64,000 nt of DNA from Candidatus Allochristensenella caecavium (GTDB lineage: Bacteria; Bacillota; Clostridia; Christensenellales; QAND01), in NCBI GenBank assembly GCA_904397865.1, contig CAJFOS010000013.1, positions 1 through 64,000 of the forward strand, written 5' to 3'. The notes under the pieces are model-generated. The model was not told the DNA's origin and did not search any database. It saw only the letters and a list, made by a program, of their open reading frames with translations. Each line of letters starts with the position of its first letter. The stretch's first letter is position 1. Positions 227 to 20,882 of the stretch are shown here, piece after piece. The position numbers were made by a program, and so were the translations under genes.

Positions 227-1513
227 ATGAGTGAACTGAGGTATGCCAATATCGCGCTGGATATTTTCAGCATGATGCTATCCTCGCTGCCCGTTATTTA
301 TCTGATTAGCAACCATCGATATCGGCTAAAGCTGAATCAATATTTTTTGGGAATATGTCTTTCGAATATTCTCATGACAGTGGGAGACTTGGGGGACTGG
401 ATGATGCCCGCCGTCATCACGCTATCGGATAGGGTGACGCTGATGGTTCTTACGGTTCTCTATTATGCGGCCTCTGCATTTATCTTATATTTTTTTATAC
501 GGTATATCATAGAATACCTGCAACTGAGAGGGCGTGTAAAACAGGCATGCTTGCTTTACACAATATGCCTTTGCAGCGTACAGATTATTTTTGCCGCAAT
601 AAGCCCGTTTACCGGTTCGATTTTTCGTGTTACGGTTGACGGATATCAACGCGGTCCGTTGTTTTTGTTATCACAGTTCATCCCGTTGTTTTGCTATATT
701 CTTTGCATCGTGCTGGTGATTGCCTATCGAGATAAGCTTTCGCGGCGGGAAACGATGTTCTTTTTGCTCTATATCTTTCTTCCGTTGGGCAGCGGTACTG
801 CCCAGATGGCCATGCGAGGAATTGCCGTAGTCAATGCAAGCCTCACCATTGCCATGTTATTGATTTTAATGAATATTCAATTTGAACATGAGGTGGCGAT
901 GAAAGAGCAGGAAAAGGAGCTGGCCGAACGGCATATTGATGTCATGCTCAGCCAGATACAGCCCCATTTTCTATATAATTCGCTAAGTGTTATCTATCAT
1001 TTGTGCGAAGAAAATCCTGGAAAGGCGCAAAAGTCCATCAAAGAATTTTCCGCATTTCTGCGCGGAAATATGAATAGTTTGAAAGCCCGCAAACCGATTC
1101 CGTTTGAAACGGAACTCAACCATGTTATGAATTACCTTTATTTGGAACGGCAGCGGTTTCAGGAACGGCTGCATGTGGTCTGCCAGATACAGACGACGGA
1201 TTTTTACATTCCGCCTTTAACGCTCCAACCGCTGGTAGAAAATGCCGTGCAGCACGGGATTCTCAACAAAGACGAAGGCGGCACTATTTCCATCTGTACA
1301 AACAGGACGGCGGAATATGCCATTGTGACCATCATGGATAACGGAATTGGTATGGAAAAGGCGAAGACCTATACGGCGCATGGCGCGCACGCCCACATCG
1401 GGATTGAAAATGTCCGCCAGCGATTGAAAAGCATGGTCAACGGCACATTGGATATTGAAAGCAATGAACGTGGAACAGTGGTTACGCTGCAAATTCCGTG
1501 GACGGGGAGATAG
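227..1513 (+). CDS. Sensor histidine kinase, LytS/YehU-type, multi-TM N-terminus
   Basis: About 6 hydrophobic helices N-terminal. QIQPHFLYNSLSVI matches the His_kinase (PF06580) phospho-His motif. C-terminal GHKL ATPase motifs (ENAVQHG, DNGIGM, GTVVTLQIP). RBS GAGGTGAG upstream. Confidence 0.85.
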   Translation: MSELRYANIALDIFSMMLSSLPVIYLISNHRYRLKLNQYFLGICLSNILMTVGDLGDWMMPAVITLSDRVTLMVLTVLYYAASAFILYFFIRYIIEYLQLRGRVKQACLLYTICLCSVQIIFAAISPFTGSIFRVTVDGYQRGPLFLLSQFIPLFCYILCIVLVIAYRDKLSRRETMFFLLYIFLPLGSGTAQMAMRGIAVVNASLTIAMLLILMNIQFEHEVAMKEQEKELAERHIDVMLSQIQPHFLYNSLSVIYHLCEENPGKAQKSIKEFSAFLRGNMNSLKARKPIPFETELNHVMNYLYLERQRFQERLHVVCQIQTTDFYIPPLTLQPLVENAVQHGILNKDEGGTISICTNRTAEYAIVTIMDNGIGMEKAKTYTAHGAHAHIGIENVRQRLKSMVNGTLDIESNERGTVVTLQIPWTGR

Positions 1514-1525
1514 GAGGCGAGCACG

Positions 1526-2332
1526 ATGCGTTTTTTAGCGGTAGACGACGAAATCTATATACTGGAAGAAATGGTCAAAATCCTCCGCCGTGTCCAGCCC
1601 AAAACGGAAGTGCTGTCCTTTACGCGCCCGGATGAAGCGATTCGGGCGGCTGAGCGACAAACAATTGATGTTGCGTTTTTAGACATCCATCTGGGGAAAA
1701 TGTCCGGTTTGGAGCTTGCAGTGAGACTCAAAAATATCAAGCCGGATATGCACATTATTTTCGTAACGGGCTATCAGGAATACGCTGTGGATGCATTCCG
1801 CATGCATGCAACGGGATATCTGCTCAAGCCGGTGGATGAAAATGATGTAAAGCGGGAATTAACGTTTATTTACGAGGAAGCCCCCCAGAGAAAGAGGATA
1901 TCGGTACAAACCTTTGGCGGATTTGAACTGTTTGTAGACGGACGGCCAGTTCATTTCGGCCGTGCGAAATCCAAAGAGCTGCTGGCCTACCTGGTGGACC
2001 ATCGGGGGGCAGTCGTTACGGCGGCGGAAGCGCGAGCTGCGCTGTTTGAGGAAATGGGGAATACTGGTACGTCCAAGAGTTACTTTCATCAACTGGTGTA
2101 TGAACTAAAAAATGCCTTAAAGAAGGCAGGGGCGTCGGAAATCCTTACCAAAGGATTTAATGGCTATGCCGTTGTCCCGGAAAAATTTGACTGCGATTAT
2201 TACCGGCTCCTGCAAGGGGACCCAATTGCCATTAATCAATACCAGAATGATTATATGCCGTTATATAGTTGGGGAGAAGCGCACAACGCCGAACTCTGGC
2301 TCAAGCATGTATATGCCACCCCGCCTGAATAA
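1526..2332 (+). CDS. Response regulator: receiver domain plus OmpR/SARP-type winged-helix DNA-binding domain
   Basis: Receiver signature (VDDE...DIHL...K). C-terminal FGGFELFVDGRPVHFGRAKSKELLAYLV...LWL pattern typical of trans_reg_C/SARP wHTH. 13-nt gap to the kinase gene, so an operon. Confidence 0.8.
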   Translation: MRFLAVDDEIYILEEMVKILRRVQPKTEVLSFTRPDEAIRAAERQTIDVAFLDIHLGKMSGLELAVRLKNIKPDMHIIFVTGYQEYAVDAFRMHATGYLLKPVDENDVKRELTFIYEEAPQRKRISVQTFGGFELFVDGRPVHFGRAKSKELLAYLVDHRGAVVTAAEARAALFEEMGNTGTSKSYFHQLVYELKNALKKAGASEILTKGFNGYAVVPEKFDCDYYRLLQGDPIAINQYQNDYMPLYSWGEAHNAELWLKHVYATPPE

Positions 2333-2397
2333 AAAGCAATATCCGTTCATCGGGGAACCAATGGCAGGGTAGCTGCATCAGCGCACCATTGCCGGCA

Positions 2398-2436
2398 AGC
2401 AAAAGCTCCGGGAGAAACTCCTCGGAGCTTTTGCTT
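2398..2436 (+). terminator. Rho-independent terminator after the two-component pair
   Basis: Inverted repeat aaaagctccggg-agaaac-tcctcggagctttt followed by a T-rich tail. Confidence 0.55.
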
Positions 2437-2523
2437 ATTGTGATTTAACCGGCGGATTTGTAAGGGTTTTGTGATGCGCGGTCAGTAGAATGAAATTGTA
2501 TAAGCAAAGAAGTGGGGGATACC

Positions 2524-3516
2524 ATGACAATTTTGCTCGTTGACAGCGATAAAAGGGCGCTGGACCGGGAAGCCAAACGCCTGGCGGACCAGCAATCTGC
2601 CGCCATGGTTGTCCTGCACAGCAACGCCAACGATGCCTTGAAATTTGCAATGTATCATGATGTGCATATTGTTTTTACAAGACCCGCACTGGTGGAGATG
2701 TCCGGCCAAGAATTGATTGAAAAAATACTTCGCTTCAAGCCGGAAGTGGAATGCCATATGCTCGCACAGGGCGAGGAAGTTCCGCTTGTGTACTTTCTGG
2801 GTAAAGACAAAGATGCGTTCCGTTCCGAGAACGTAAGTGACAGCCACACAAAGATGAATGATACAAAAGGTGAAATGCATACAATCAAGAATAAGAAGAG
2901 GTCGGGAAACGATTCTCCTCAAGAGGGGCAAAAGAAAGGCGATACACATATGACGGAACGGCAGTTACGCAGTTTGGGCAGAAAAGAACTTTTGGAAATG
3001 ATGATTGAACAGGGAAAAGAACTGGAGTTTGTCAAATCGGAACATGCAAAAGATTTGGAATTTGTAAAAGCGGAGCACGAGAAAGAAATAAATGCGTTAA
3101 AACAAGAGCTGGAGAAAGCCCGCGCAGCCCTGCAGAACCGGGAAATCGCTATCAATGAAGCGGGCTCGATTGCGGTGGCGGCCCTTCAGATAAACGGGAT
3201 TTTTGAAGCGGCGCAGGCCGCGAGCCAGCAATATATCGAAAATATCCGTACGCTCAATGACCGGCAGGCGGCGCTCTGTGCCCAGCGGGAGGAAGCAAGC
3301 CGGGCCGAAGCCGAACGGCGGCTGAGAGAGACGGCCGCCAAATGTAAGACCATGGAGGCGGCGTGCCGGGACAAATGCGCGGCGATGGAACGCGATGCAC
3401 AACAGCGTTCGGAAGCATACTGGACGGAGGTTTCCAAACGCCTGCAATCATTCTATGAGAATCATCAGGAGCTGAAAAAACTCCTGGGTTATAGCATCCC
3501 AGGGATTCAAATATAA
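2524..3516 (+). CDS. Hypothetical protein: degenerate (pseudo-)receiver domain fused to a long coiled-coil
   Basis: N-terminal 100 aa align to the upstream receiver (ILLVDSD...VHIVFTRPALVEMSGQEL), but the phospho-acceptor Asp position is T/R. Low-complexity linker, then a heptad-rich coiled coil with the tandem repeat ELEFVKSEHAKDLEFVKAEHEKE. RBS GTGGGGGA. Confidence 0.6.
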   Translation: MTILLVDSDKRALDREAKRLADQQSAAMVVLHSNANDALKFAMYHDVHIVFTRPALVEMSGQELIEKILRFKPEVECHMLAQGEEVPLVYFLGKDKDAFRSENVSDSHTKMNDTKGEMHTIKNKKRSGNDSPQEGQKKGDTHMTERQLRSLGRKELLEMMIEQGKELEFVKSEHAKDLEFVKAEHEKEINALKQELEKARAALQNREIAINEAGSIAVAALQINGIFEAAQAASQQYIENIRTLNDRQAALCAQREEASRAEAERRLRETAAKCKTMEAACRDKCAAMERDAQQRSEAYWTEVSKRLQSFYENHQELKKLLGYSIPGIQI

Positions 3517-3529
3517 ACGGAGTGCCGGT

Positions 3530-4114
3530 ATGAAACGCAAATCAATCACCTGTTTGCCCACGGTACAGCAACTGGAGCAGGAACTGAAACGGGAAGCCTA
3601 TCGGAAGCGGTATCGGAGAATGTTGGGCAGTACGATTTCGACGCTCATCGTTGTGGCGGCGGCTGTCGTGCTGATATCCCATCTTTTGCTGCCCATCCTG
3701 CGGATTTACGGTACGTCGATGACGCCGACTCTGACGGACGGCAACATTGTTGCAGCTATAAGAAAAGGTTCCTATGAGCGCGCAGACATCATCGCTTTTT
3801 ATTACAATAACAAAATTCTGGTAAAACGTGTGATTGGCTTGCCGGGGGAATGGATAGACATGGATGAAAACGGCAATGTGAGCATCAACGGGCAAACCTT
3901 GCAGGAGCCGTATTTGAAAGAAAAAGCGTTCGGGGAATGTGATATCCAGTTCCCTTACCAGGTGCCTGACAGCCGATATTTTGTCATGGGAGACCATCGC
4001 AGTGTTTCCAGCGATTCCCGTAACAGCGATGTAGGGTGTGTGTCAGAGGAGGATATCGTGGGGACGTTGGTCTTTCGGCTCTGGCCGCTGAACGAATTGG
4101 GCGAGATTGAATAG
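3530..4114 (+). CDS. Signal peptidase I, SipW/archaeal-ER type, pilus-associated
   Basis: N-terminal TM. Box B GTSMTPTL (Ser nucleophile). Box D VMGDHRSVSSDSR (His general base, SipW type). Sits immediately upstream of the pilin genes, as SipA/LepA does in streptococcal pilus islands. Confidence 0.8.
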   Translation: MKRKSITCLPTVQQLEQELKREAYRKRYRRMLGSTISTLIVVAAAVVLISHLLLPILRIYGTSMTPTLTDGNIVAAIRKGSYERADIIAFYYNNKILVKRVIGLPGEWIDMDENGNVSINGQTLQEPYLKEKAFGECDIQFPYQVPDSRYFVMGDHRSVSSDSRNSDVGCVSEEDIVGTLVFRLWPLNELGEIE

Positions 4115-4134
4115 TTTTGGGAGGGAGGTTTGCC

Positions 4135-7100
4135 ATGAAACCACAGGATAAACAAAATAAAATCCAGGAATATATACGGGAACACAAGTTGAGAAAACGC
4201 TGGCATAAGCTGACCGCTGTCCTGGCGGCAGCAGCGATTGTGGTAACGACTACCGTTATGGTTCTGCCGGCTCTTACCCTGGAGAACGGCCCGAAAGTGC
4301 TGGCGTGCCAGCTGAATCTCCATACCCATATTGCCAGCTGTTATGACGAATCGGGCAGCCTTGTTTGCGGATATGCGGATTTTGTTGCACATGTTCATAA
4401 CGAATCCTGCTACGCCGAAGACGGAACGTGCATTTGTTCGCTGGAAGAAATCCGGCCTCACACGCACGATGAATCATGCTACCAGGAAACACTCGCCCAA
4501 GTGTGTGGATTTGATGGTGAGGAGCATGCGCATACGGATGCTTGCTATATGATGGCGGACGAATTGGTTTGCGGGCAGGAAGAAACAGCGCCGCATGCCC
4601 ATACGGAAGATTGCTATGATGCGAATGAGGGCCTGGTTTGCAAACAATCGACAGACGCACATGTCCATACGGAACAATGTCATGCGCGTTCTGAGGAGCC
4701 AATCTGCGGCAAGGACGAGCAAATACATACGCATACCGACGCCTGTTATGAAGCCCATAGGGAATTGGTTTGCGGCAAAGAGGAAATCGTTTTGCATACC
4801 CACACTGCCAGCTGCTTTGATGCGGACGGCAAGCCGGTTTGCGGCAAGATGGAAGTCAGGGAACATATCCATGACGCCAGCTGCCTTCCTGCTGAAATCA
4901 AAACGGACAAACAAACAAGCTGGGCGACGGTGGATAAGAACGGATTCAAGGCTGCAAGAAGGCGCACTGCCGCCACAAACGCCTTGCGCGCGGCGCAGAG
5001 CGTGGACTTCACGCAGTATATTACACAAATGTCCCTTTCCAAAGCGGTTGATGGACAATGGGTACCGGTTACAGAGGTCACGACCGGCGATTCCATCCGG
5101 CTGAACATCCACTACACGATTCCAGAAAATGTGGTGGGGCCGGATTCTCGGGTGATTCACTACCAGCTGCCCAAGGGAATCGGGCTGGAGGAACAGGCAA
5201 CCGGACCGGTCACCATCGAAGGCAGTTATGCCGGCGAATACGTGATACAACCGGGAGGACTTATCCAGATTACCTTCACCCAGGCATTTGCCGACAACCG
5301 CCCCTTTACAGGGGAGCTGGAATTCCAAGGCATTGTTACCGCCACTGGCCAGGAAGGAGAAGAAGAAATTGATTTGGGCACTGCCGGCGGCACGGTCACG
5401 GTAAAACCGGATGAGGAGGCAACCGACCTTACCGTGGCCAAAGAAGGATGGTATGACAAGGAAAATAATCTTATTTACTACAGCATCACGGTGTCCAGTG
5501 AACAGGGAACGGATGGGCCGCTGACAATGGAAGATGCCTTTATGCATCAGCCGGATTATGGGGTTGTCAATTATAAAGAGGTAGTTGAATTCTATAAGCT
5601 GAATGCCGATGGAACCAAAACCCATCCCTTGGATGAGCAAAGCCTCTTGGCACTTTTGCATATAAGTGGCCAGACACCGGACAAAACCGCCTCTTTCACG
5701 CTGGGGCCCTTGCCGGCTTTAGGGGCTGGAGAATCGTATGTGTTTGCCTATACCGCTGAACCGGACCTGAATGTATCCGGCGACGCAAACGGCTATACGC
5801 AGTTTGCCAACACAGCGGTAGCCCATGACGACAGCCATTCCGCCCAAGCCAGTGTGAACATCAAAGTATCGGATACAATGGTTCACAAGGAAGGCGTATA
5901 CGACCCGTTGACGCAGAAAATCAAATGGTCGATTTATCTCAACGAGAGCCAGCGGGACATCGGCGGGCTGCGGCTGGAGGACACGCTTACCTACACGGCC
6001 AACGGACAGATATACACGGCGGATTTGCCGGAGACTGTCCAGATTGAACTGTTCCGGGATTACCAGCCGCTGGGGATTGTTGAAAACATATCGATTCCAT
6101 TCACCTTCCCGGAAAATTCCAACGTACAGTATCTGGTTACTTATGAAACGGAGATGCCGGCCAATCTCCCAGATGGAAGCTATGTTACTTTCCACAATAC
6201 GGTGCGGCTGGGAAGGTACGAGGTGGAAATTGACGTTGACGGTTACGCCCCCGGCGATTATGGGGTGATAAAGGGAATGACGGACGCCGATTCAGATACG
6301 GGCATTGTGGAATGGGCCGCGTCTATCGCACACCCGACACCCCTGGATATTCAAAAGCTGCACTATGTGGATTGGATTCCCAATCTGCTTCTGGCAGACG
6401 GCACATTTTTGCCGGGTAGCCATTACACTACCCCGCGGCTTCTGGCCGATTCGCTTCGGATTCAGGCGGTGGAGGGAGCGTTTCTGCAATACGGAACCGA
6501 CTATACGCTGCAGGCAGTCTCCAAAGCAGACGTTGAAGCCCTGATGGAGGAACTTAACCTGACGGATGAGAACCTGACCTGGGCAGTGCAGGAACTTTCA
6601 TATGAAGAGCTGTCGCAATACTTCCGCCTGCAGCCTATCGGAAGCTTTGAGCAGGATGAACCGCTTGGGCTGTTCTCCATCGAATTTCAGACGAGCGCCA
6701 TAGGGAAAATCGGCGAAGCCAGTCTTTTGCTTACCTACCACACGCAAGTGAATGTGAGCAATTTACCCGCAGGGGTTGAACGGGCGACGGTGGGGAATCT
6801 GGGGCGAATTCCGGATGGCTATATGCTGGCGCGGGGCAACATGTCCTTTGGTGCGAGGCTGAATAAACAGGCCAGCCAGACCGGTATCCCTGAGGCGGGC
6901 AAGGATTCCAGCTCCTATACCGATGTTCCGCTGACCGTCCATTCAGGCGATACAGATGGAATCCTACACTACCGAATCCTGATTTCCGATTATAGCAAAT
7001 ATAACGATGAGAATGCAGTCACGGTGACGGATACGCTGCCGGCCGGGGCCAAGCTTGTAAAGGATTCAGTCGTCTTGCGCAGCCATCCCAACGGGTTTAA

Positions 7101-8700
7101 CACCTTCGATGTCCAAACGACGGACCCCTGGTATATAGCGCAAGTTTCCACAGTTGAAAACCCGGACGGAACGACGGCGGTCACTTTCTTCATCTCGCAT
7201 ATCAAGGACCTAAGCGGAGCTCCCTTCGGCATCTACTATGACGTTTCCGTTGCGCAAGACGGAGAACTTATCAGCAGCGGCGAAAAGCAATATACCAACA
7301 CCGTGGCCTGGGATGGGGAAACCGACAGCACGACCACCACGGTAAAACACACCTTGCCCCGTCTGGAAAAGGTGGGAGAGCGGCTCCAAGCGGCGGAGGG
7401 GGCGGAAGAGCTTTCCGACAGGTTGCGCTACTATGTCACTATCAACCCGACGGGCGAACGGCTGAATCCGTATGACAACCACCTGACCTTGGAGGATGTG
7501 CTGAGCATCCCGGCTGGCAGCAGTGCGAGTTTTCCGCCGGATAGCGTAAGGCTTTACCGCTATAATTCAGCCGATGCGGAAAACCACTTCTGCGGGGAAG
7601 CCATCGACCCGTCGCTGTATTCCGCCGAGTACGATGGTGCGACACGGACGATTACGTTCACAATACCGGACCGGACCGCCTGCGTCCTGGTTTATGACTA
7701 TATCATTGACCGTGGAACAGCCGCCGGGGATTTGAACATCTTTAACACGGTAAAACTCAGCGGGCATGGGGAATTCTCTTCCGAATCGGGAATCGTTATG
7801 GAAGAGGAACAATCCTCCGCCACGGTGAATAAGGCGACGGTGACGATTTATAAGCACGAAAGCGGCAACTCGCTGCATCTGCTGCCTGGAGCAACGTTCC
7901 GGCTGGAACGATATGAACAGACCGGCGCTGGATACGAATGGCGGCAGACCTCCGCCACGGCGACAGGTGCGGGCGGATTGTTCGTAGTCGGTGAGGAAGG
8001 CAAGATTGTGCTGAGCTTTGTGAACGAAACCTCGCTGTACAATACGCTGTACCGCCTGCAGGAGATTGACGCCCCGGATGGGTATTTGAAGAGCGACGCC
8101 ACGTACTACTTTATCTGGGGTGAGCGGGGCGAGACAAAAGAGGCGGCGCTTGCGCGGATGCAGGAAAACGGAGCGCTGGGCAATGTGCCCCTGGAACAGA
8201 TTGGCTTTGTTGCTTTTTCCACCTCCCATGCCATCTATGTTCCCAATGAGCCCGATGCGTTGACCGTCGTCAAGACATGGCGCAACGACGCGGGCGAGGT
8301 TTTAGAACAAGCGCCGATAGGGGAGGTTACCATCCAGCTGTACCAGTGGAAGGACGGCGTGAAGACCGCCTATGGCAATCCGGTGGAACTAAATGCCGGA
8401 AACGGCTGGTCGTATACCTGGAATGCGCTGCCCAAAGTGGATGGGGACGGGAAATCTTATCATTACACGGTGGAGGAAGACCCCTTATCCGGTTTCCAGA
8501 TTGCATATGTCAACAATGAAGGCGTTCAGACTGGGATGATTGAGGTCGTCAATACGCAAAACGAATATGTCCTGCCGGAAACCGGTGGAGCGGGGCCAAG
8601 GTTCTTTTTCCTTGCAGGGCTGCTTCTTGCCGGAGCGTCTGCCGCCGGATACGTATATTTGAGGCGCAGACATCGGAAGGAGGGAATGCCCCTTCAATAA
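4135..8700 (+). CDS. Pilus tip adhesin / LPXTG surface protein with N-terminal Cys/His-rich tandem repeats
   Basis: Signal/TM segment. About 9 tandem H-x-H...C-Y...L-V-C-G units (aa 64-256). Central beta-rich region. E-box-like YRLQEIDAPDGY. C-terminal CnaB/SpaA-type isopeptide domain (VVKTWRND...YHYTVEE). LPETGG, hydrophobic span, then RRRHRK tail. The ORF track starts at TTG 4117; ATG 4135 follows RBS GGGAGGGAGG. Confidence 0.85.
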   Translation: MKPQDKQNKIQEYIREHKLRKRWHKLTAVLAAAAIVVTTTVMVLPALTLENGPKVLACQLNLHTHIASCYDESGSLVCGYADFVAHVHNESCYAEDGTCICSLEEIRPHTHDESCYQETLAQVCGFDGEEHAHTDACYMMADELVCGQEETAPHAHTEDCYDANEGLVCKQSTDAHVHTEQCHARSEEPICGKDEQIHTHTDACYEAHRELVCGKEEIVLHTHTASCFDADGKPVCGKMEVREHIHDASCLPAEIKTDKQTSWATVDKNGFKAARRRTAATNALRAAQSVDFTQYITQMSLSKAVDGQWVPVTEVTTGDSIRLNIHYTIPENVVGPDSRVIHYQLPKGIGLEEQATGPVTIEGSYAGEYVIQPGGLIQITFTQAFADNRPFTGELEFQGIVTATGQEGEEEIDLGTAGGTVTVKPDEEATDLTVAKEGWYDKENNLIYYSITVSSEQGTDGPLTMEDAFMHQPDYGVVNYKEVVEFYKLNADGTKTHPLDEQSLLALLHISGQTPDKTASFTLGPLPALGAGESYVFAYTAEPDLNVSGDANGYTQFANTAVAHDDSHSAQASVNIKVSDTMVHKEGVYDPLTQKIKWSIYLNESQRDIGGLRLEDTLTYTANGQIYTADLPETVQIELFRDYQPLGIVENISIPFTFPENSNVQYLVTYETEMPANLPDGSYVTFHNTVRLGRYEVEIDVDGYAPGDYGVIKGMTDADSDTGIVEWAASIAHPTPLDIQKLHYVDWIPNLLLADGTFLPGSHYTTPRLLADSLRIQAVEGAFLQYGTDYTLQAVSKADVEALMEELNLTDENLTWAVQELSYEELSQYFRLQPIGSFEQDEPLGLFSIEFQTSAIGKIGEASLLLTYHTQVNVSNLPAGVERATVGNLGRIPDGYMLARGNMSFGARLNKQASQTGIPEAGKDSSSYTDVPLTVHSGDTDGILHYRILISDYSKYNDENAVTVTDTLPAGAKLVKDSVVLRSHPNGFNTFDVQTTDPWYIAQVSTVENPDGTTAVTFFISHIKDLSGAPFGIYYDVSVAQDGELISSGEKQYTNTVAWDGETDSTTTTVKHTLPRLEKVGERLQAAEGAEELSDRLRYYVTINPTGERLNPYDNHLTLEDVLSIPAGSSASFPPDSVRLYRYNSADAENHFCGEAIDPSLYSAEYDGATRTITFTIPDRTACVLVYDYIIDRGTAAGDLNIFNTVKLSGHGEFSSESGIVMEEEQSSATVNKATVTIYKHESGNSLHLLPGATFRLERYEQTGAGYEWRQTSATATGAGGLFVVGEEGKIVLSFVNETSLYNTLYRLQEIDAPDGYLKSDATYYFIWGERGETKEAALARMQENGALGNVPLEQIGFVAFSTSHAIYVPNEPDALTVVKTWRNDAGEVLEQAPIGEVTIQLYQWKDGVKTAYGNPVELNAGNGWSYTWNALPKVDGDGKSYHYTVEEDPLSGFQIAYVNNEGVQTGMIEVVNTQNEYVLPETGGAGPRFFFLAGLLLAGASAAGYVYLRRRHRKEGMPLQ

Positions 8701-8768
8701 CGCATGCCCCACGAATGTGAAATAACCTAAGGCGACCATGTTTCAAACAAAGGGAGGAGAATATTTCC

Positions 8769-10487
8769 ATGAAAAAACTGAAAAAACTGGCGGCGGCTTT
8801 ACTGTCGCTGGCCATGACGGCGATGCTCGCTGTCCCGGCCTTTGCGCAGGCAGGTGATTATTCCATCACCATCAGCAACACAAATGCAAACCATACCTAT
8901 ACCGCCTACCAGATTTTCAAGGGCGATGTTTCCGGCGGGACTGGGGATGGCACAACGGGCAACAGCACCTATCTTTTATCCAACATTGAATGGGGCTCCG
9001 GCGTGCAGAATATCAGCGGTCTGCTCACTGCGCTGAAAACCCAAGCGGGATTTACATCGCTAACCGACCAGTCCACCGCTGCTGATGTGGCAAAGCTGCT
9101 GGACAGTGCCGCGGATTTGGAGACCTTCCTGACGGTGCTCAATGGGACGCCCGGTTACCTGAGCAGTACGGCCGCGGGGACAGCTACGCCTGGCGCAGGG
9201 ATGACTGCATGCACCATCAACCTGACCGAGGGCGGTTATTATCTGGTCAAGGATAGCCTTGCCGGAGAAACCCCCGACGACTTCGTCAGCGATTATATCG
9301 TTCAGGTCCTGGGCCAGGAAACCATGGCCCCCAAAGGCGATAAGCCCACCGTTGAAAAGAAGGTCTATGAGGAGAGTCTCTCCGCCGCCACCACGGACTG
9401 GGGCAATGGCTACAACGACGTAGCGGACTATGATATCGGTGATGCCGTCCCCTTTAAGATTGTTGCCTCCATCCCTGACATGACCGGTTATAACGGTTAT
9501 GAGTTTGTTATCACTGACACCCTCTCCAATGGACTGACCTTGGCCGAGGACACGCTTCAGGTCTACGTAACCGCTGCCAAGGACACCGCGCTGGATGCGC
9601 TGACTCCGCTGAGTGCGGGAACGGATTACACGCTGGCCACTACGGACATTGGTGATGCGAGTTTTACCCTCACCTTTGAGAACATGGAGGAGAATGAGGA
9701 TTTTACCGCTTCAGATGATAATTACATCATTGTCACTTATACTGCAACGCTGAATGAAAATGCGGAAATTGGCCTGGACGGCAATCCCAACGAGGTTGAC
9801 CTGACCTATTCCAATGACCCCAACGGCAAAGGCAAAGGGAAAACCCCCAAGGATTATGTTGTCGTGTTCACGTATGAACTGGACGGCACGAAGGTCGATG
9901 GAAAAAATACGGAGACCAAACTTAAGGATGCGGAATTTGTCCTGTTGAACAACGCCGGTACTCAGGTAGCGAAGATAGACAGCAACGGCAAGTTTGACGG
10001 CTGGGTGAATGTGCCGGATGGTTCCGGTGACGCCGGTGCAATCACCTATGGTGACTGGACGACATTTAATCAGACCCACAAGGTCATCATGACCTCTGCG
10101 GAGACATCCGGCAGCTTCGGCATTTCCGGGCTGGACGAGGGCGCCTATCTCCTGCGGGAGATAAAGGCTCCTGAGGGCTACAATCTAATCAAGAACGACC
10201 AGACGCTGGTCATCGCCGCCAGCACCGGCGAAGTGCAGAATTATAATGGGACGGCTTCCAGTGTACTGACTACCCTGACGCTTAAAGTCGGCGAGGAGGA
10301 ACCGAAGGCCGGCAATGTGGCCGACGGTACCGTGGCCATTGAGGTGCCCAATAATGCCGGCGCTACGCTGCCTGAAACCGGGGGCGTCGGTACGACTATC
10401 TTCTTCGTGCTGGGCGGTGTGATGTTGCTTGGAGCGGGCATCCTTCTGACTGTGCGAATTCGCATGAAGGCTACCAATCGCCAATAA
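8769..10487 (+). CDS. Major (backbone) pilin subunit, LPXTG-anchored
   Basis: Signal peptide MKKLKKLAAALLSLAMTAMLAVPAFA. E-box YLLREIKAPEGYNL. LPETGG plus TM plus RIRMK tail. Thr/Gly-rich Ig-like regions. Strong RBS GGGAGGAG. Confidence 0.85.
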   Translation: MKKLKKLAAALLSLAMTAMLAVPAFAQAGDYSITISNTNANHTYTAYQIFKGDVSGGTGDGTTGNSTYLLSNIEWGSGVQNISGLLTALKTQAGFTSLTDQSTAADVAKLLDSAADLETFLTVLNGTPGYLSSTAAGTATPGAGMTACTINLTEGGYYLVKDSLAGETPDDFVSDYIVQVLGQETMAPKGDKPTVEKKVYEESLSAATTDWGNGYNDVADYDIGDAVPFKIVASIPDMTGYNGYEFVITDTLSNGLTLAEDTLQVYVTAAKDTALDALTPLSAGTDYTLATTDIGDASFTLTFENMEENEDFTASDDNYIIVTYTATLNENAEIGLDGNPNEVDLTYSNDPNGKGKGKTPKDYVVVFTYELDGTKVDGKNTETKLKDAEFVLLNNAGTQVAKIDSNGKFDGWVNVPDGSGDAGAITYGDWTTFNQTHKVIMTSAETSGSFGISGLDEGAYLLREIKAPEGYNLIKNDQTLVIAASTGEVQNYNGTASSVLTTLTLKVGEEEPKAGNVADGTVAIEVPNNAGATLPETGGVGTTIFFVLGGVMLLGAGILLTVRIRMKATNRQ

Positions 10488-10500
10488 TCCCTTTTTTATG

Positions 10501-10544
10501 GCTGCCACGGCCGGGGGCGTTCTCCCTTCCGGCCGTGTGGCAGT
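10501..10544 (+). promoter_or_regulatory. GC-rich stem-loop between the major pilin and sortase genes (partial terminator/attenuator)
   Basis: gctgccacggccgg-(15 nt loop)-ccggccgtgtggcag is a 13-bp stem with one 2-nt bulge. No U-tract, so read-through into srtC is likely. Typical pilin>sortase stoichiometry device. Confidence 0.45.
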
Positions 10545-10558
10545 AGGGAGAACCTTGC

Positions 10559-11419
10559 ATGAAAAATGATGATTTAAAAAAGAACAAGAGAGTTTCCATC
10601 CTGTTGATAATCGTTTTTTTTGCAGGGTTGTTTTTACTGCTGTATCCAGTGGTCAGCGATTATTGGAACTCGCTGTATCAATCACGTGCTATTTCCTCTT
10701 ATGTAGATGTGGTGACGGAGATGGATGACGACTCGTATGAAGACATGTGGAAGCAAGCGCAGGCGTATAACGCCGCCCTGCAGGGCAATCCAAACCGTTT
10801 CCAGCCCAGTGAGGAGCAAAGGAAAAACGGTGAAAAGCTGTTGGATGTCACGGGGAATGGCATCATCGGCTATGTCGAAATTCCATCGATTGACGTCATG
10901 CTGCCCATTTATCACGGAACCGATGAGGAGGTTTTGCAAGTCGCCATTGGACATGTTGAAGGCTCCTCTCTCCCGATAGGCGGTGCAGGAACGCATTGTG
11001 TCATATCCGGTCACCGTGGGCTGCCTTCCTCCAGATTGTTTACCGACCTGGACCAGCTGGCGGAGGGAGATATCTTCATTCTGCGGGTGTTGGATGAAAC
11101 GCTGACCTATGAGGTGGACCAAATCCGCATTGTAGAGCCGGAGGATATCTCTTTATTGGGAATCGAAGAGGGGAAGGACTTTTGTACCTTGGTGACCTGT
11201 ACGCCGTATGGCGTCAATTCCCACCGCCTTTTGGTACGGGGCCATCGGGTAGAGAATCAGCAGACATTCCAAACGCTGCGCGTTACGGCGGATGCGATGC
11301 TGGTTGATGCACGCCTGGTTGCACCAATACTCGCAATCCCCATTCTGCTGGTTCTTGTATTGCTGGTGGCGCTGCGGCCGCTGATGAGAAAAAGAAAATC
11401 CGAAAGAGGTGATAAATAG
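10559..11419 (+). CDS. srtC: Class C (pilus-polymerising) sortase
   Basis: N-terminal TM. Catalytic His (VISGHRG). TLVTCTPYG Cys motif. LLVRGHRV Arg. C-terminal hydrophobic anchor plus KRK tail, typical of class C. Confidence 0.85.
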   Translation: MKNDDLKKNKRVSILLIIVFFAGLFLLLYPVVSDYWNSLYQSRAISSYVDVVTEMDDDSYEDMWKQAQAYNAALQGNPNRFQPSEEQRKNGEKLLDVTGNGIIGYVEIPSIDVMLPIYHGTDEEVLQVAIGHVEGSSLPIGGAGTHCVISGHRGLPSSRLFTDLDQLAEGDIFILRVLDETLTYEVDQIRIVEPEDISLLGIEEGKDFCTLVTCTPYGVNSHRLLVRGHRVENQQTFQTLRVTADAMLVDARLVAPILAIPILLVLVLLVALRPLMRKRKSERGDK

Positions 11420-12364
11420 ATGAAAATCCGCATGCCTTGGAAGCGCATTGGAGCGACGTTATTGGCTGTCGTGATGGGAATCGGCTGCATATCGGCTGCC
11501 GCGTTTGCCCGGGAAAGTATCGAGACTGACAGGGCAACTTCGCTAAGCATATATTTTGGTGCAGATGGAATCGGGTTTTCTGCAGTGAACTTTTCCATTT
11601 ATCGCGTGGCAAATACTTCGGAAAACGGCGCCTTCACATTGACGGGAGATTTTGCCGACTATTCCGTCAACCTGGAGGACCTGGATAGCTCCGGCTGGCG
11701 GGCGCTGGCCCAGACGCTCGCCGTTTATACGGCACGGGATGAATTGAAACCGCTTCGTACGCAGAGAACCGGACAGGGTGGACGGGTCAGCTTTGCGGGC
11801 CTTGCCGTGGGATTGTATTTGGTAATCGGTGAGGAATATGCAGATGCAAACGCCATCTATACCCCGGAACCCATGTTGGTATCCCTTCCGGAATGGACGG
11901 AGGAGGGGGACTGGAACTACGGCATAGAGGCCACATGTAAATTTGACCGTAGGGATAAGACGCCTGGGCGGGTAAGCCGTAAGGTACAGAAGGTTTGGAA
12001 GGATGACGGCAATGAGGACACGCGGCCCAAAGAGATTTCCGTGCAGCTTCTGGAGAACGGGACTGTTGTCGATACCGTCCTATTGAACAAGAAAAATAAC
12101 TGGGAATATACGTGGGAGAATTTAGACAGCAACGCAAGGTGGCAGGTGGTCGAATCGGAAGTGCCGGCTGGATACACCGTCACCGTAGCGCAGGAAGGAA
12201 CGATATTTGTCATAACGAATACCCGCCCGTATGAACCGCCGCCCAAACTGCCTCAAACAGGAATGCTGTGGTGGCCAGTGCCAGTGCTTGCCTGCGGCGG
12301 ATTGTTGTTGGTATTAGCTGGATGGATGGTGCGGCGTAAGCAGGGAGATTCCCATGGAAAGTAA
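11420..12364 (+). CDS. Minor/basal pilin with CnaB-type domain, LPQTG-anchored
   Basis: Signal peptide. CnaB-like KVQKVWKDDGNEDTRPKEISVQLLENG...YTVTV. Pro-rich PYEPPPK preceding LPQTGM plus TM plus RRKQ. Start overlaps the srtC stop (translational coupling). Confidence 0.75.
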   Translation: MKIRMPWKRIGATLLAVVMGIGCISAAAFARESIETDRATSLSIYFGADGIGFSAVNFSIYRVANTSENGAFTLTGDFADYSVNLEDLDSSGWRALAQTLAVYTARDELKPLRTQRTGQGGRVSFAGLAVGLYLVIGEEYADANAIYTPEPMLVSLPEWTEEGDWNYGIEATCKFDRRDKTPGRVSRKVQKVWKDDGNEDTRPKEISVQLLENGTVVDTVLLNKKNNWEYTWENLDSNARWQVVESEVPAGYTVTVAQEGTIFVITNTRPYEPPPKLPQTGMLWWPVPVLACGGLLLVLAGWMVRRKQGDSHGK

Positions 12365-12980
12365 AAGAAAAGGAGGAACAGCCCTTATAGCGCTCGGGCT
12401 GCTGCTCATTGCAGCGGCCCTTTTTCTAATCGGATATAATCTGTTTGACGAATACAGAGCCGGGAAAACGGCTCGCCGAGTATTGGCAATGCTGCGGGAA
12501 CAAGCCCCCATTGACGCTGGCATCCCGGAAGTATCGTCGCCGGGCAAGGAAGTCGTTCCAGATTACGTGCGCAACCCGGACATGGAGATGCCGACCAGAG
12601 AGGTTGAAGGCAATGATTATATCGGGATTTTAGAGATTCCGTCATTAGAGCTTTCTTTACCGGTGATGAGCAGATGGAGCTATCCCAAGCTGAAAATTGC
12701 GCCATGCCGCTACAGCGGCTCCGCTTACGAGGGAAACCTGACGATTGTAGCGCATAATTACCGCACCCACTTTGCATCGGTGCGAGATGTTCCGGTTGGG
12801 ACCCGGGTGCTGTTTACCGATGTAAAAGGGCGCATCTTTGCTTATGAGGTTGCGGCGATTGAAACAGTTGAAGCCAATGCCGTCCAGGAAGTGGTGAACG
12901 CTGCATGGGATTTGACGCTTGTTACTTGTACGCCAGGCGGGCAGGCCCGTGTCGCTGTGCGATGTGTAAAGGCGGGATAA
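12354..12980 (+). CDS. Second sortase-family transpeptidase
   Basis: N-terminal TM. His (IVAHNYRTHF). LTLVTCTPGG Cys motif. conserved Arg (ARVAVRC). Overlaps the basal pilin gene end. Confidence 0.7.
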   Translation: MESKRKGGTALIALGLLLIAAALFLIGYNLFDEYRAGKTARRVLAMLREQAPIDAGIPEVSSPGKEVVPDYVRNPDMEMPTREVEGNDYIGILEIPSLELSLPVMSRWSYPKLKIAPCRYSGSAYEGNLTIVAHNYRTHFASVRDVPVGTRVLFTDVKGRIFAYEVAAIETVEANAVQEVVNAAWDLTLVTCTPGGQARVAVRCVKAG

Positions 12981-17509: not shown

Positions 17510-18175
17510 TTAAATGGAAAAAGTTTGGAAAAACGAATACAAAGGTTGCAGAGTGCGGAAATCCTCAGCCAGTTGGTCGACCAGTGCAGGCTGCATGGTT
17601 TGCTGCAAGGAAATGGGTTTTTCATAGGCCAGCCATTTGCGGCTGACAACATCCATCAGTATGGGGTCGTCTGAACGCAGTGGCGGCCGTTTGTAACGTG
17701 AACCATGGAGCGAAAATCCAGCACTGACCACTTCGAGATGCAAGGCTTTATACCGCGCGCCGTTGGCGAGGATATGCTGACGCAACAAGGTCATTTGCGA
17801 AGGGGTCAGCCCATGTACGCCGATACCGCAGTCTGCGCCGCGGGGGGAAAGGTCAAAATAGAGACCGAAATGTCCCTGTTCCCGTTTGCGCCGGAATTCA
17901 AGCCACATATTATCCCGATAAGGCGATTTATCGCGTGTAAAGCGGGTATCTCTGCGGATACGGGAGATGGTTCCCCCCATCACCGGACGCAGGTCCATCT
18001 GCGGGTCAATGGCCATCATGGTGGGTGCCAGGGCGTTGGATAACGCCTTCAGTGGCGTCAACACATGCGCTTGAAAAGCAGGCCGGTTCTGTTCAAAACA
18101 GGAAGGGGTATTATTGAATGCAATCATCATGAAAAAGGAGAACGTATCCTCCGTAAATCCAGTAAACGTATGCAT
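17510..18175 (-). CDS. DUF2461/TIGR02453-family conserved hypothetical protein
   Basis: FTEDTFSFF...FEQNRPAFQAHV...FRIRRDTRFTRDKSPY pattern characteristic of this family. ATG at 18175 follows GGAGG. Confidence 0.6.
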   Translation of the reverse strand: MHTFTGFTEDTFSFFMMIAFNNTPSCFEQNRPAFQAHVLTPLKALSNALAPTMMAIDPQMDLRPVMGGTISRIRRDTRFTRDKSPYRDNMWLEFRRKREQGHFGLYFDLSPRGADCGIGVHGLTPSQMTLLRQHILANGARYKALHLEVVSAGFSLHGSRYKRPPLRSDDPILMDVVSRKWLAYEKPISLQQTMQPALVDQLAEDFRTLQPLYSFFQTFSI

Positions 18176-18338
18176 GATTTCCTCCAAGCATTTATTATAT
18201 CCTGATTTGCGGGGACTTTAAAGCCCCCGCCTGAACAAATAGGGAAGGAAATAAAGGAAAAGAATTGAACGAGGGAATACGGACATGCCAGACCCCAAAA
18301 ACAAAACCCCTACGATTCGTTCGCAGGGGTTTTGTCCT

Positions 18339-20741
18339 TTAACGTTTACGCGTGCGGCGCGGAATATCCAAATCGTCCTCCTCCAAAGAACGGGAACGAC
18401 GACGCGGCACATCATCTTCTTCCCAATCGCGTGCGGTTTCACGGCGGGCTACGGGACGCCGTACAGCCTCCTCTTCATGCATGGTACGCCGGCTGATACG
18501 GCGCGCCGGCACGGGCGCGGTATCGTCCAAATCCGCCACGGTCATCCGCCGGCGCGTACGCGGCACATCTTCTTCCCAATCCGTCACGGGACGGCGTGTA
18601 CTGCTGCGGCGTGAAACAGGCGTATCCTCCTCCAAATCAGCTACGGTTGCGCGGCGCCGTGAAGGCCGGTTTTCTTCTGGAGAATCCGGTGCCGTGCGCC
18701 GGCTGGAACGACGGGAGGAGACCGATGGTTCGTCATCCAAATCCGCCACCGTCCGGCGCCGTGCCCGCGGTTCATTGGAGGCATCTGATGATTTACGGTT
18801 CGAATCTGTTGGACGAACGGGCGCAAACATTTGCGTCTCCTCGGCATTTTCCGAAGGGTTCAACGGCGTGCGATGCCCTTCCTCATCGAGCGTATACACC
18901 TTGCGGCGCGAGGAAGCGTCGGCGGCGACTGCACCGGCAAACAGGCCGGCTGCAGCGGCTTGGGTTCCCATGTGTTCCTGGGAATTCGACGCGCGCAAGT
19001 CCTCGTTATAAGGCGTGTTGGATTTGGGTAGAGAAGTCACGGAAGCATCATCCGCGTCCACCGGCGGCCGCCGACGGACCGGACGTACATTTTCATCAGA
19101 CGTCCGGCGTTCCTTGTTACGGGAAGCGGAATCCGGCTCATGCGGGAGGGCACGGTCACGGCTGTTGCGCACGCCGCTGGACGGGCCTTTGCCATCCGGG
19201 CCTTTACCGCCTGGTCCTTTTCCGTTGGGGCCCTTTCCTTTTGGGCCTTTTCCGTTTTTTGCCCGTTTTTCCTGAATCATCAAAACGGTGAGCGCTACAC
19301 CGGCGAGAATAATCAATACGACGATGATAATCATCCAGACGAACAACGAGCCAAGCTGCCCGGAATCTGCCGGATTGATGACATCCGGGGTCGGCGTGGC
19401 CGAATCCGTCAGCGCCACAGTGGGAGCCACATTGGTTTGCGTACTGCCGTCTTCTCCGGTACCGGAAACTTCAAAGACATAGCTGGAAGCCGAGGTGACC
19501 ACCGCTTCCTTGGTAACGGTTTTGCTTTCGCCCGCTTTCAGGGTGTCAATTGTAGCGATGGTTCCCAAACGCGATTCACTGACCACGACGTTGGTCAAGT
19601 CCGTTGCGCCGGAGTTTTTTACTTCAATCGTAAAGACAACGTTGCCGGGGAAGGTCATTTCCGTTGGGGAAGCGGATGCAGTAATGGACAGGTATGAAGA
19701 AGTGCCCGGAGCCGGCGTAGAAAAGCCGGATACATGGACATAGATAGCATCGCTGGACACGGATTTCGTATCATCGCCCGACTTAAACGTAGCGGTAAAG
19801 ACCGCGTTGCGCGGCTGATTGACGACGGTTTCATAGGTGATGGATTTCATCTGCGGGTTGTCGTCCGAGCCGGCCGGTACATCGATGGAGGAACGAACGA
19901 CATTGCCTTGTTCGTCTACCACCTTGATATCATTGACCGCCACCTTGCCTGCATTGCGCAGGGCAATGGTGAAGGTGACCTTATCACCAGCCTCTACAGT
20001 GGACTTATCCGCGATGGCGGAAATGGAAAGGGAAGGATTGCTGACCGTAATCCTTTCGCTGTCCAGGTTTTTGGTATATGTTTTGCCATTTGCTGTATAG
20101 GACAGTTTGGGCGTGGAGGTAACGGATTTATCGACCGTAATGGTTTTGCTGTATTGTTTGGATGAACCGGCCGTGATGGTCACGCCGGAAGCAATCGCAT
20201 CGCTGCCGACGGCGGCATCGGTCAGTTTGACGTCGGTGATGTCGGCGGTGCCGGTGTTTTTGATGTTATAGGTCAGTTTTACGCTGGAGCCGGGCGCCAC
20301 AGTGGTCTTGCTCAACGTGCGGGTGAATGAAACGCTGACCGTCTCCGCCTTCTTATTGACGCGGAAGGTGGTGGTTGCCGTCCCCGCGTTGGTATCGGCG
20401 GTCAGCGTAACGCTATTGCCGACATCAGCTGCAGCAAAGGGTACCCCGGTCAGTGAAAACGTACGCGAACTGCCTACAGCAATTGTTATATTTTCAAATA
20501 GTTTGCTGTAGTCCGCATTATTGCTGAATGTAAATTTAACACTGGTGATTTCTGTATCCGAATTGTTTTTGACTGTGGCTTTCACCGTGGCATTTCCACC
20601 ACCAGCAGGAACGGTCACATCCTCCGCCGTGACGGTCACGCCGGCGGCTTGCGCCGTGGGTGCCGGAGCCTGGAACACGGCTAGGCTCAGCAACATGCAA
20701 AACGCCAGGAACAGCGCAATACGAGATTGTCGTTTTTTCAT
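18339..20741 (-). CDS. Type I membrane protein: signal peptide, tandem DUF11/CARDB-like ectodomains, single TM, 311-aa Arg-rich repetitive cytoplasmic tail
   Basis: Signal peptide MKKRQSRIALFLAFCMLLSLAVFQAPAPTAQA after RBS AGGAGG. Repeated VxxGxxVTxTxxVKNxGxxxxTxVKxTD modules. TM LGSLFVWMIIIVVLIILAGVALTVLMI. Tail has GKGP x5 and three RRR-x-TVADL-[DE][DE] repeats. Confidence 0.8.
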   Translation of the reverse strand: MKKRQSRIALFLAFCMLLSLAVFQAPAPTAQAAGVTVTAEDVTVPAGGGNATVKATVKNNSDTEITSVKFTFSNNADYSKLFENITIAVGSSRTFSLTGVPFAAADVGNSVTLTADTNAGTATTTFRVNKKAETVSVSFTRTLSKTTVAPGSSVKLTYNIKNTGTADITDVKLTDAAVGSDAIASGVTITAGSSKQYSKTITVDKSVTSTPKLSYTANGKTYTKNLDSERITVSNPSLSISAIADKSTVEAGDKVTFTIALRNAGKVAVNDIKVVDEQGNVVRSSIDVPAGSDDNPQMKSITYETVVNQPRNAVFTATFKSGDDTKSVSSDAIYVHVSGFSTPAPGTSSYLSITASASPTEMTFPGNVVFTIEVKNSGATDLTNVVVSESRLGTIATIDTLKAGESKTVTKEAVVTSASSYVFEVSGTGEDGSTQTNVAPTVALTDSATPTPDVINPADSGQLGSLFVWMIIIVVLIILAGVALTVLMIQEKRAKNGKGPKGKGPNGKGPGGKGPDGKGPSSGVRNSRDRALPHEPDSASRNKERRTSDENVRPVRRRPPVDADDASVTSLPKSNTPYNEDLRASNSQEHMGTQAAAAGLFAGAVAADASSRRKVYTLDEEGHRTPLNPSENAEETQMFAPVRPTDSNRKSSDASNEPRARRRTVADLDDEPSVSSRRSSRRTAPDSPEENRPSRRRATVADLEEDTPVSRRSSTRRPVTDWEEDVPRTRRRMTVADLDDTAPVPARRISRRTMHEEEAVRRPVARRETARDWEEDDVPRRRSRSLEEDDLDIPRRTRKR

Positions 20742-20882
20742 TGGATTCCTCCTAACAGCAAAGAGCGCTGTGGGATTTTGCCGAATTTCGTTCGGCCATA
20801 AGAATAGGAAGAGGGCGCGTGCAAGCACCCCTTTTTCCATTATGTTCCGTTTTTGGCTTCCTCATACCAAACACGGACGGTT

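Follow-up and report, generated by a model that had tools for sequence, protein, structure and literature searches.

A charge-patterned array of repeated motif units in the long, predicted cytoplasmic tail of a membrane-anchored surface protein from an uncultured Clostridia lineage

The stretch analysed here, 64,000 nucleotides (nt) of contig CAJFOS010000013.1 from Candidatus Allochristensenella caecavium (hereafter the window), carries on its minus strand a gene for a membrane-anchored repeat-domain envelope protein of 800 amino acids (aa). Its ectodomain is unremarkable for the CLIPPER/CARDB families, and the unusual part of the protein is the region after its transmembrane (TM) helix, a block-polyampholyte tail that carries a motif array and belongs to no described family. 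Judged from codon comparison with a sister species, selection in the array acts on the repeated units and not on the spacers between them, which is the signature of short linear motifs and not of drift. With a probability of roughly 0.5 we read the tail as a multivalent cytoplasmic sticker or docking array at the inner face of the membrane. Eukaryotic adhesion and signalling receptors commonly have long disordered cytoplasmic tails with motif arrays, which are hardly described on bacterial surface proteins; those of Gram-positive bacteria are usually passed to sortase, with only a few basic residues left inside the cell.

The open reading frame (ORF) extends over 18339..20840, and an AGGAGG located 7 nt upstream of the ATG at 20741 identifies the protein as the 800-aa form. 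Its length is intact in 13 further independently assembled full-length copies, which measure 800 or 796 aa (794 aa in the sister species). The original prediction of a signal peptide, DUF11/CARDB-like immunoglobulin (Ig) modules, one TM helix and a tail of 311 aa was borne out in every part. An AlphaFold2 (AF2) model, built with an alignment of 10 sequences, places the four Ig-like domains at aa 35-130, 137-233, 238-338 and 351-438 with a predicted local distance difference test score (pLDDT) of ~85-93. Scores of the ectodomain exceeded the cut-offs for the Pfam families DUF11 (PF01345, 41.5 bits against 24.6), DUF7507 or CLIPPER_2 (PF24346, 39.8 against 27) and CARDB (PF07705, 30.4 against 22.7), as well as for the NCBIfam family TIGR01451 (51.6 against 24). 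DUF11, also termed CLIPPER, is an isopeptide-type CnaA-like domain, and some DUF11 domains lack the isopeptide bond (PMC12617251). A Foldseek search of the PDB returned generic tandem-Ig arrays only.

Neither a sortase motif (LPxT[GASN], NPx[TS]x, SPxTG or PPxTG) nor a lipobox was matched anywhere in the protein, and the membrane helix is therefore its anchor. Within this helix, the family alignment shows no variation at I471, I473, V474, G481, L484 or L487. A sortase B-like reading of the sequences NPADSG and NPSGGD ahead of the TM helix was discarded, as no match of the NP[QK][TS] type exists. Homology to SARAF (PF06682) was likewise rejected: the match, limited to TM helix and tail, scored 16.0 bits against a cut-off of 30.8 (E = 0.0097) and reflects compositional resemblance, both proteins having a charged tail behind a TM helix.

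The 15 residues preceding the TM helix contain no lysine or arginine and the 15 residues following it contain six, so that the positive-inside rule makes a cytoplasmic tail and a type I architecture very probable, in agreement with the location proposed originally. The first 15 tail residues carry a net charge of +5. Along the whole tail the AF2 pLDDT is 30-37, rising to ~50 only around aa 617-639, and the tail is thus predicted to be intrinsically disordered, as had been expected. Its sole hydrophobic stretch is AAAAGLFAGAVAA. A second TM helix at this site, which would leave the repeats outside the cell, was considered and dismissed, because the Kyte-Doolittle maximum of 1.05 lies well below 1.6 and the patch is absent from the orthologues L006 and P0012; the 54 arginines downstream also speak against export.

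Directly behind the membrane-proximal QEKRAK motif lie the five GKGP units that had been described before, at 19182-19253, detected by Tandem Repeats Finder as a 15/30-nt array at 19183-19256. This stretch is a cationic flexible spacer beside the membrane. It is 94% identical to that of the sister species, and the P0003 lineage has KKKGPKGGPHPPKGGPGP at the equivalent place. The central island that follows at aa 595-639 has counterparts in more distant orthologues, namely RRRAYTLRDEEDG in P0012 and AAAGMIVGG...YYRR...DDG in P0003.

The motif array fills the last 145 residues. Five copies follow the pattern RR-x(1-3)-[TVA]-x-D-[LW]-[DE]-[DE]-x(0-3)-P, i.e., an arginine cluster, one or two small or hydrophobic residues, D-[L/W] with two acidic residues, and a proline. 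The gaps between the units hold either a second, serine-containing arginine cluster with a short acidic stretch or just two or three residues. Three exact TVADL cores start at aa 664, 699 and 734 (18528-18752), and their period is exactly 35 aa, each 35-aa repeat comprising two basic-acidic half-units. The tail also holds two DWEED motifs. Since the window sequence PVTDWEEDVP aligns with NVADLDEDVP or TVADLDEDVP of the sister species, the DWEED units are diverged VADL units. The initial description, three repeats of ~33 aa and a degenerate fourth, was thus right about the three TVADL cores and their quoted flanks, which are exact, and needs correction to a period of 35 aa and to five motif units plus a looser sixth. 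Strict conservation of TVADL, also claimed, holds within the window protein; in some copies of close relatives the threonine is replaced by asparagine (P0002, P0035) or isoleucine (P0034), and the core that stays unchanged throughout is VADL[DE][DE]. A caspase-like reading of the cores as xVAD/L cleavage sites was dropped, as leucine or tryptophan at P1' is atypical. Bacterial caspase homologues are, moreover, not known to be Asp-specific.

Compared with shuffled tails, the motif is strongly enriched. D[LW][DE][DE] occurs five times against ~0 expected, a count reached in none of 2000 shuffles, and all five copies are preceded by RR and followed by P. The looser pattern [DE][DE]x(0-3)P was found 13 times (3.2 expected). 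The charge pattern is equally non-random: blockiness, expressed as the Das-Pappu delta, has a z score of +6.9 against 2000 shuffles, and charge autocorrelation over aa 656-800 peaks at lags of 16-19, 35 and 51-53, corresponding to a charge wave of ~17.5 aa. Kappa is approximately 0.32 over the entire tail and 0.40 over the repeat array. Predicted disorder and segregated, alternating charge blocks, the two marks of a block polyampholyte, are both present.

In composition, the tail (aa 490-800) is dominated by R (54), S (31), P (29), D (29) and E (27), with 29 A counted over aa 493-800. So many arginines in 311 residues, including clusters of the RRSSRR type, could recall an RS-like or YidC-tail-like segment binding nucleic acid or the ribosome. 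Such a role is highly improbable, however, as the net charge is near neutral (+0.04 per residue) because each arginine block is matched by an acidic one, orthologous tails range to net acidic, and no RNA-binding family was matched.

The 35-aa units are pairwise only 51-55% identical in nucleotides and their TVADL cores differ in synonymous codons, from which it follows that the repeats are old duplications and not recent slippage. Outside the GKGP array, Tandem Repeats Finder detected no tandem repeat in the DNA. To assess selection, the window gene was compared by the Nei-Gojobori method with its 84% identical counterpart P0002 from the sister species (locus L003, another metagenome), whose tail is collinear with that of the window and carries four [TN]VADL units. 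The ratio of non-synonymous to synonymous substitution rates (dN/dS) was 0.066 for the whole ectodomain and 0.149 for the whole tail. Within the tail it amounted to 0.04 for the GKGP array and 0.063 for the central island. Inside the array (aa 656-800), the motif units gave 0.075 (65 codons) and their 6-aa cores 0.055, whereas the spacers between units gave 0.405 (79 codons). Across the three aligned VADL[DE][DE] cores, seven synonymous changes and one conservative change were counted. In the 14 full-length sequences available from the two species, motif copy number is fixed and polymorphisms are few, none of them inside a VADL[DE][DE] core. The roughly five-fold difference between units and spacers argues for the short linear motif or docking repeat that the original prediction had proposed.

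These values also bear on the idea that the array has no function and arose as a by-product of slippage in a GC-rich stretch rich in arginine codons. In favour of such neutral low-complexity drift, the tail is lineage-private and cannot be aligned between orthologues, and indels are frequent in the P0003/L006 pair. Against it stand the dN/dS values of tail and units at a dS of ~1, the fixed copy number, the old age of the unit duplications and the lack of DNA repeats beyond the GKGP array, and we give drift very little credence. The original prediction had named strain-specific drift with no conservation in orthologues as the outcome that would speak against it. Its first half is contradicted by the selection data; its second half holds in so far as the motif is not kept beyond one sister species.

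The membrane-distal Ig domain D1 (20352-20639, minus strand; aa 35-130) evolves ~6-9x faster than the other three, with a dN/dS of 0.205 against 0.02-0.03 for D2-D4. Its amino-acid identity to the sister species is 76%, compared with 94-97% for D2-D4, and small indels occur in it as well. An exposed or ligand-binding tip would be expected to evolve in this way.

Three antisense ORFs overlie the tail-coding DNA on the plus strand (18352-19011, 18596-19291 and 19015-19275; 219, 231 and 86 aa). Their translations are Ser/Arg/Gly-rich and of low complexity. We do not regard them as genes but as by-products of the CGN/GAN codon bias, as purifying selection acts on the minus-strand frame.

How could such an array work? 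In the docking reading given above, the motif units would bind several copies of one putative cytoplasmic partner. Alternatively, neighbouring tails might pair with one another, the arginine blocks of one meeting the acidic-hydrophobic blocks of the next. Either way, the protein would be clustered and held in the membrane, and its extracellular Ig stalk would thereby be linked to the inside of the cell. Anionic lipid head groups may additionally be contacted by the Lys/Gly/Pro array near the membrane and by the arginine clusters. Both modes have bacterial precedents. For the disordered region of RNase E, alternating charge patches are reported to be both required and enough for self-association (PMC12691583), and MapZ, a single-pass protein, has a disordered cytoplasmic domain in which one short conserved stretch binds FtsZ and others bind the membrane (PMC7055233).

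The docking could also be regulated by phosphorylation, with a Hanks-type kinase acting on RRx[ST] sites and/or on the threonine of TxxD[LW], and with FHA or other phospho-binding readers, or a tuning of the charge blocks, downstream. RRx[ST] is present nine times where 1.5 are expected (in none of 3000 shuffles was this count reached), and the sister species has eight such sites. TxxD occurs five times against 1.8 expected, and four of the five units of the window protein contain TxxD[LW]; pTxxD is a classical FHA-ligand pattern. The excess of RRx[ST] is not independent evidence, however, because the sites lie in duplicated units, and the rule of basic residues upstream of the phospho-acceptor, which belongs to eukaryotic AGC kinases, is not known to have an established bacterial counterpart. 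It is the threonine at position -3 that is replaced in some copies of relatives, whereas VADL is never altered, and no kinase or FHA gene is annotated among the neighbours. We therefore consider phospho-regulated docking unlikely.

If the tail were a tether to the divisome or cytoskeleton, the protein would localise to septa or poles, the units and the EEDDLDIP-RRTRKR end mimicking the C-terminal peptide of FtsZ or another tail that binds FtsA, SepF or DivIVA. MapZ sets a precedent for this as well, and the end of the window protein, DDLDIP followed by a polybasic stretch, resembles an FtsZ C-terminal peptide. The peptide of Bacillus subtilis FtsZ is DDTLDIPTFLRNRNKRG, and the consensus D-[IL]-P-x-[FY]-[LI]-[RK] sits at the extreme C-terminus. 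The window protein ends in EEDDLDIPRRTRKR, without the xFL, so that the P-x-F-L part for the partner pocket is absent. The sister species ends in DEFDLPRRPRKR and other lineages in GYGPSNPKRRKH or DDLPPLRPRRRR; where the window protein has LDIP, the sister species has FDLP, and GYGPSN or DDLPPL is found there in other lineages. Cell-division genes are missing among the annotated neighbours. The motif SRxxR[RK] near the membrane, through which mini-domains of penicillin-binding proteins bind GpsB, has no occurrence in the tail. Divisome tethering thus appears to be a long shot.

To determine how far tail and motif reach, several searches were performed. The tail had no Pfam or NCBIfam match above threshold, and a sequence search of the PDB gave no match at E<=10. 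A HMMER profile made from two tails and run against 1.84 billion representative proteins recovered its own cluster only (E = 2.7e-183), with no further match at E<=1e-3. These results uphold the earlier statement that the tail belongs to no described family. Inside the window no other copy of the motif exists, and two degenerate DNA patterns spanning two or three copies had no match in the JGI metagenome contigs; as these contigs lack the lineage itself, both pattern results are weak negatives. The three-copy pattern does find the window. Recurrence of the motif on other proteins, for which a search had been proposed originally, was thus not observed in the profile search, the window or the JGI contigs at the sensitivity available.

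The protein itself has orthologues, assigned by the conserved gene order tyrS - yigZ - ilvE - tail gene - DUF2461 - tkt (transketolase), which is held in four lineages, and it is vertically inherited. P0003-P0012, L005 and L006 share 41-44% ectodomain identity with the window protein and have tails of 200-266 aa in the sequences measured. Common to them are the QEKRAK-K/G/P start and the acidic-Pro-polybasic end; of the 14 family tails tabulated, 9 have a net positive charge over their last 12 residues. For the tails of the window, P0003, L006 and P0012, blockiness z scores of 5.6-6.9, charged fractions of 0.36-0.47 and a net charge of ~0 were obtained. In Smith-Waterman comparison with composition-preserving shuffles, similarity to the window tail reached z = 3.5 for P0003, 2.7 for L006 and 0.4 for P0012. 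What is left in these orthologues are micro-homologies, DLDDTAPVPARR paired with DLDEAAPMPPRR and RRKVYTLDEEG paired with RRRAYTLRDEEDG. Their lineages own separate islands and duplications, as in L006, where RRPPQ..HR[DE]E.LFA..DE.LSLPPRR is present twice. A profile search with ectodomain and TM helix additionally found the remote, non-syntenic proteins P0021 and P0037-P0042, which have the same architecture and charged tails of 135-276 aa with differing compositions. No family member carries an annotation. A long (135-311 aa), charged, disordered tail is thus ancestral in this small Clostridia family, its sequence turns over between lineages, and in the TVADL array it has been elaborated in a form confined to a single lineage.

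This turnover is explained by the main rival to a docking array, according to which only length, disorder, charge and a basic membrane-proximal end matter and the TVADL units are not specifically read. The tail would then be either a hydrophilic stopper, fixing topology and holding the TM helix in place when the Ig stalk is loaded, or an entropic spacer. Orthologue tail sequences are almost wholly replaced while length, charged fraction and blockiness persist, and the membrane is the sole anchor of a protein without LPXTG, although the same genome encodes sortases and LPXTG pilins. Another TM-anchored protein with a cytoplasmic stretch of positive charge is Staphylococcus aureus Ebh (PMC6952806). 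The motif-focused constraint is not explained in this way: bulk properties predict neither the lower dN/dS of the units nor invariant VADL[DE][DE] cores with synonymous turnover, and a few charges would suffice for a stopper, which does not need 311 residues. We regard such a bulk role as possible, with an appreciable but minor share of the probability.

Several observations weigh against a multivalent sticker or docking array. Only two sister species have the motif, so that a widely conserved partner would have to tolerate quite different orthologue tails. The most distant syntenic orthologues, P0013-P0015 (~28% identity), have acidic, non-blocky tails of 67-83 aa. P0036 is without 96 aa of the tail found in a near-identical relative in L006 (660 versus 756 aa; L006:5932-8202), which suggests that large tail losses are tolerated unless this is an assembly artefact. 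For the dN/dS values a single species pair was compared, its dS lay near saturation (0.6-1.8), and each class held 65-79 codons. The topology draws on the positive-inside rule and the AF2 helix.

A few further details of the family tails were recorded. The 96-aa block that distinguishes P0036 from its L006 relative is bounded by RRRPP repeats, and either a recombinational deletion of the most conserved tail island of that lineage or an assembly collapse would account for it. P0025 (879 aa, in the cluster of P0001) matches the window protein up to ...PVPARRI and continues with unrelated sequence; it most likely represents a chimeric metagenome contig and not an alternative C-terminus. In P0021, P0037 and P0038, a juxtamembrane A-x-DHLE-x-A-x-RRDY lies ~10 residues past the TM helix, where the window lineage has its GKGP array. 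The C-terminus of P0039-P0041 consists of a polybasic stretch and an acidic DDDLIDxDDDLDxGEDDF tip.

Comparison with described systems yields partial likenesses. Surface proteins and fibrillar adhesins with CLIPPER, CLIPPER_2 and CARDB domains (PMC12617251) share tandem CnaA-/Ig-like modules behind a signal peptide. In Gram-positive proteins of the CLIPPER type, LPXTG and a TM segment are usually followed by no more than a short basic tail, for example in the distant matches P0017 and P0020 with LPFTG, whereas the window protein has no sortase motif and, with only four modules, forms a short stalk and not a fibre. Sortase-anchored proteins leave a basic tail of ~5-10 aa, in contrast to 311 aa here. 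S. aureus Ebh (PMC6952806) is a Gram-positive repeat-domain protein with a C-terminal TM anchor and a charged, repetitive cytoplasmic extension, but it bears no sequence relationship to the window protein, its ectodomain is helical (FIVAR/GA) and its size ~1.1 MDa, and the window tail consists of near-neutral alternating blocks and is not simply basic. The C-terminal region of alpha-proteobacterial RNase E, the scaffold of BR-bodies (PMC12691583), is disordered with alternating charge patches as well; RNase E is a cytoplasmic enzyme from another phylum without homology, whereas the window tail is membrane-tethered and its condensation purely hypothetical. MapZ/LocZ of streptococci (PMC7055233) combines a single TM pass, a folded extracellular part and a long disordered cytoplasmic part with short motifs, but its topology is the opposite (cytoplasmic N-terminus), and it neither contains repeats nor resembles the window tail in sequence.

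Eukaryotic adhesion receptors such as CD44 (PMC6439174) are similar in their type I orientation, in their Ig-type or other adhesive ectodomain and in a disordered cytoplasmic tail with short motifs and basic residues next to the membrane. The likeness is no more than an analogy across kingdoms, with no known cytoskeletal adaptor in the bacterial case. It might nevertheless be extended to the view that the family is a bacterial counterpart of such receptors, in which a wall-spanning Ig stalk would be coupled inward, mechanically and functionally, through a long disordered tail whose lineage-specific motif array recruits a cytoskeletal or divisome protein or nucleates a membrane-tethered, charge-driven condensate that clusters the receptor. 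We hold this to be rather doubtful; if true, it would imply outside-in or inside-out coupling in a Gram-positive bacterium.

If a docking or sticker array is indeed at work, with units that attach to a partner or to one another, the protein would offer a simple, testable model for coupling envelope and cytoplasm in Gram-positive bacteria, and a membrane-tethered addition to the few bacterial disordered regions with functional charge patterning. As a mere hydrophilic stopper, the tail would be a curiosity of one uncultured lineage. The feature is under selection and has few described bacterial parallels; at the same time it is confined to an uncultured lineage. The family of uncultured gut Clostridia proteins keeps a tail of 135-311 aa behind four Ig domains in most lineages, across deep divergence and within a constant neighbourhood of housekeeping genes. 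Coordinates of the gene, its parts and neighbouring features are given in Table 1.

Table 1 Features of the tail gene and its surroundings in the window.
Feature	Position	Strand	Basis or remark
Whole gene, 800-aa membrane protein, probably type I	18339..20741	-	ORF list and ribosome-binding site AGGAGG; stop codon 18339-18341
Signal peptide, aa 1-33	20643..20741	-	MKKRQSR, hydrophobic core, cleavage AQA/AG; no lipobox (regular expression negative); sequence reading; AF2 helix aa 4-22
Four tandem Ig-like beta-sandwich domains (CLIPPER/DUF11, CLIPPER_2, CARDB)	19428..20639	-	Pfam and NCBIfam matches, AF2, Foldseek
Pro/Thr-rich stalk linker, aa 439-462	19356..19427	-	pLDDT <50 at aa 448-464; equivalent P/T-rich linker in all family members
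Single TM helix, aa 463-489	19275..19355	-	Kyte-Doolittle 19-residue maximum 3.34; AF2 helix aa 461-497
Juxtamembrane stop-transfer motif QEKRAK, aa 490-495	19257..19274	-	[QK]E[KR][RK][AE]K in 10 aligned orthologues
Tail, 311 aa, aa 490-800	18342-19274	-	begins QEKRAK, then five GKGP
Five xGKGP pentapeptide units, aa 496-520	19182..19256	-	sequence; Tandem Repeats Finder
Central conserved island, aa 595-639	18825..18959	-	Ala/Gly-rich GxxxG patch, then RRKVYTLDEEGHRTPL; only tail stretch with pLDDT ~50; not TM
Motif unit 1, RRRTVADLDDEP, aa 661-672	18726..18761	-	core invariant in all 14 listed full-length close relatives
Motif unit 2, RRRATVADLEEDTP, aa 695-708	18618..18659	-	six core codons against sister species: 4 synonymous changes and one E-to-D change
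Motif unit 3, diverged copy RRPVTDWEEDVP, aa 716-727	18561..18596	-	aligned to RR[NT]VADLDEDVP of sister species
Motif unit 4, RRRMTVADLDDTAP, aa 730-743	18513..18554	-	DLDDTAPVPARR similar to DLDEAAPMPPRR of the P0003 lineage
Motif unit 5, RRETARDWEEDDVP, aa 766-779	18405..18446	-	kept as RRETTRDWEEDNVP in sister species
C-terminal looser sixth unit RRRSRSLEEDDLDIP and polybasic end RRTRKR, aa 780-800	18342..18404	-	sequence
Intrinsic terminator directly 3' of the stop codon	18297..18329	-	hairpin -26.1 kcal/mol, z = -5.2 against shuffles, then U-run UUUUGUUUUU
Terminator-like hairpin between ilvE and the start codon (upstream)	20812-20831		
LytS-type histidine kinase and response regulator	227-2332	+	
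S26 signal peptidase	3530-4114	+	
Tip-adhesin-like protein, 1527 aa	4117-8700	+	Cna_B/SpaA/collagen-binding domains
LPXTG backbone pilin	8769-10487	+	Gram_pos_anchor motif
Two sortases	10559-11419 and 12354-12980	+	
Cna_B minor pilin	11420-12364	+	

With the intrinsic terminator behind it and the terminator-like hairpin ahead of it, the tail gene looks monocistronic. A DUF2461/TIGR02453 gene (17510-18187, minus strand) lies directly downstream in all four lineages with a recovered flank (window, L001, L002 and L004), and in the window it has a promoter-like site of its own at 18194-18222. A functional link of the tail gene to this gene or to ilvE was considered and set aside: because the whole block is syntenic and the tail gene has its own terminators on both sides, the adjacency is uninformative. 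In the genome of P0014 (L002:10603-12561), the transketolase was called as four fragments of 347, 152, 37 and 73 aa in place of ~658 aa, which may reflect a pseudogene or sequencing frameshifts. At ~5 kb from the tail gene, the plus strand of the window (227-12980) encodes a complete sortase-dependent pilus locus.

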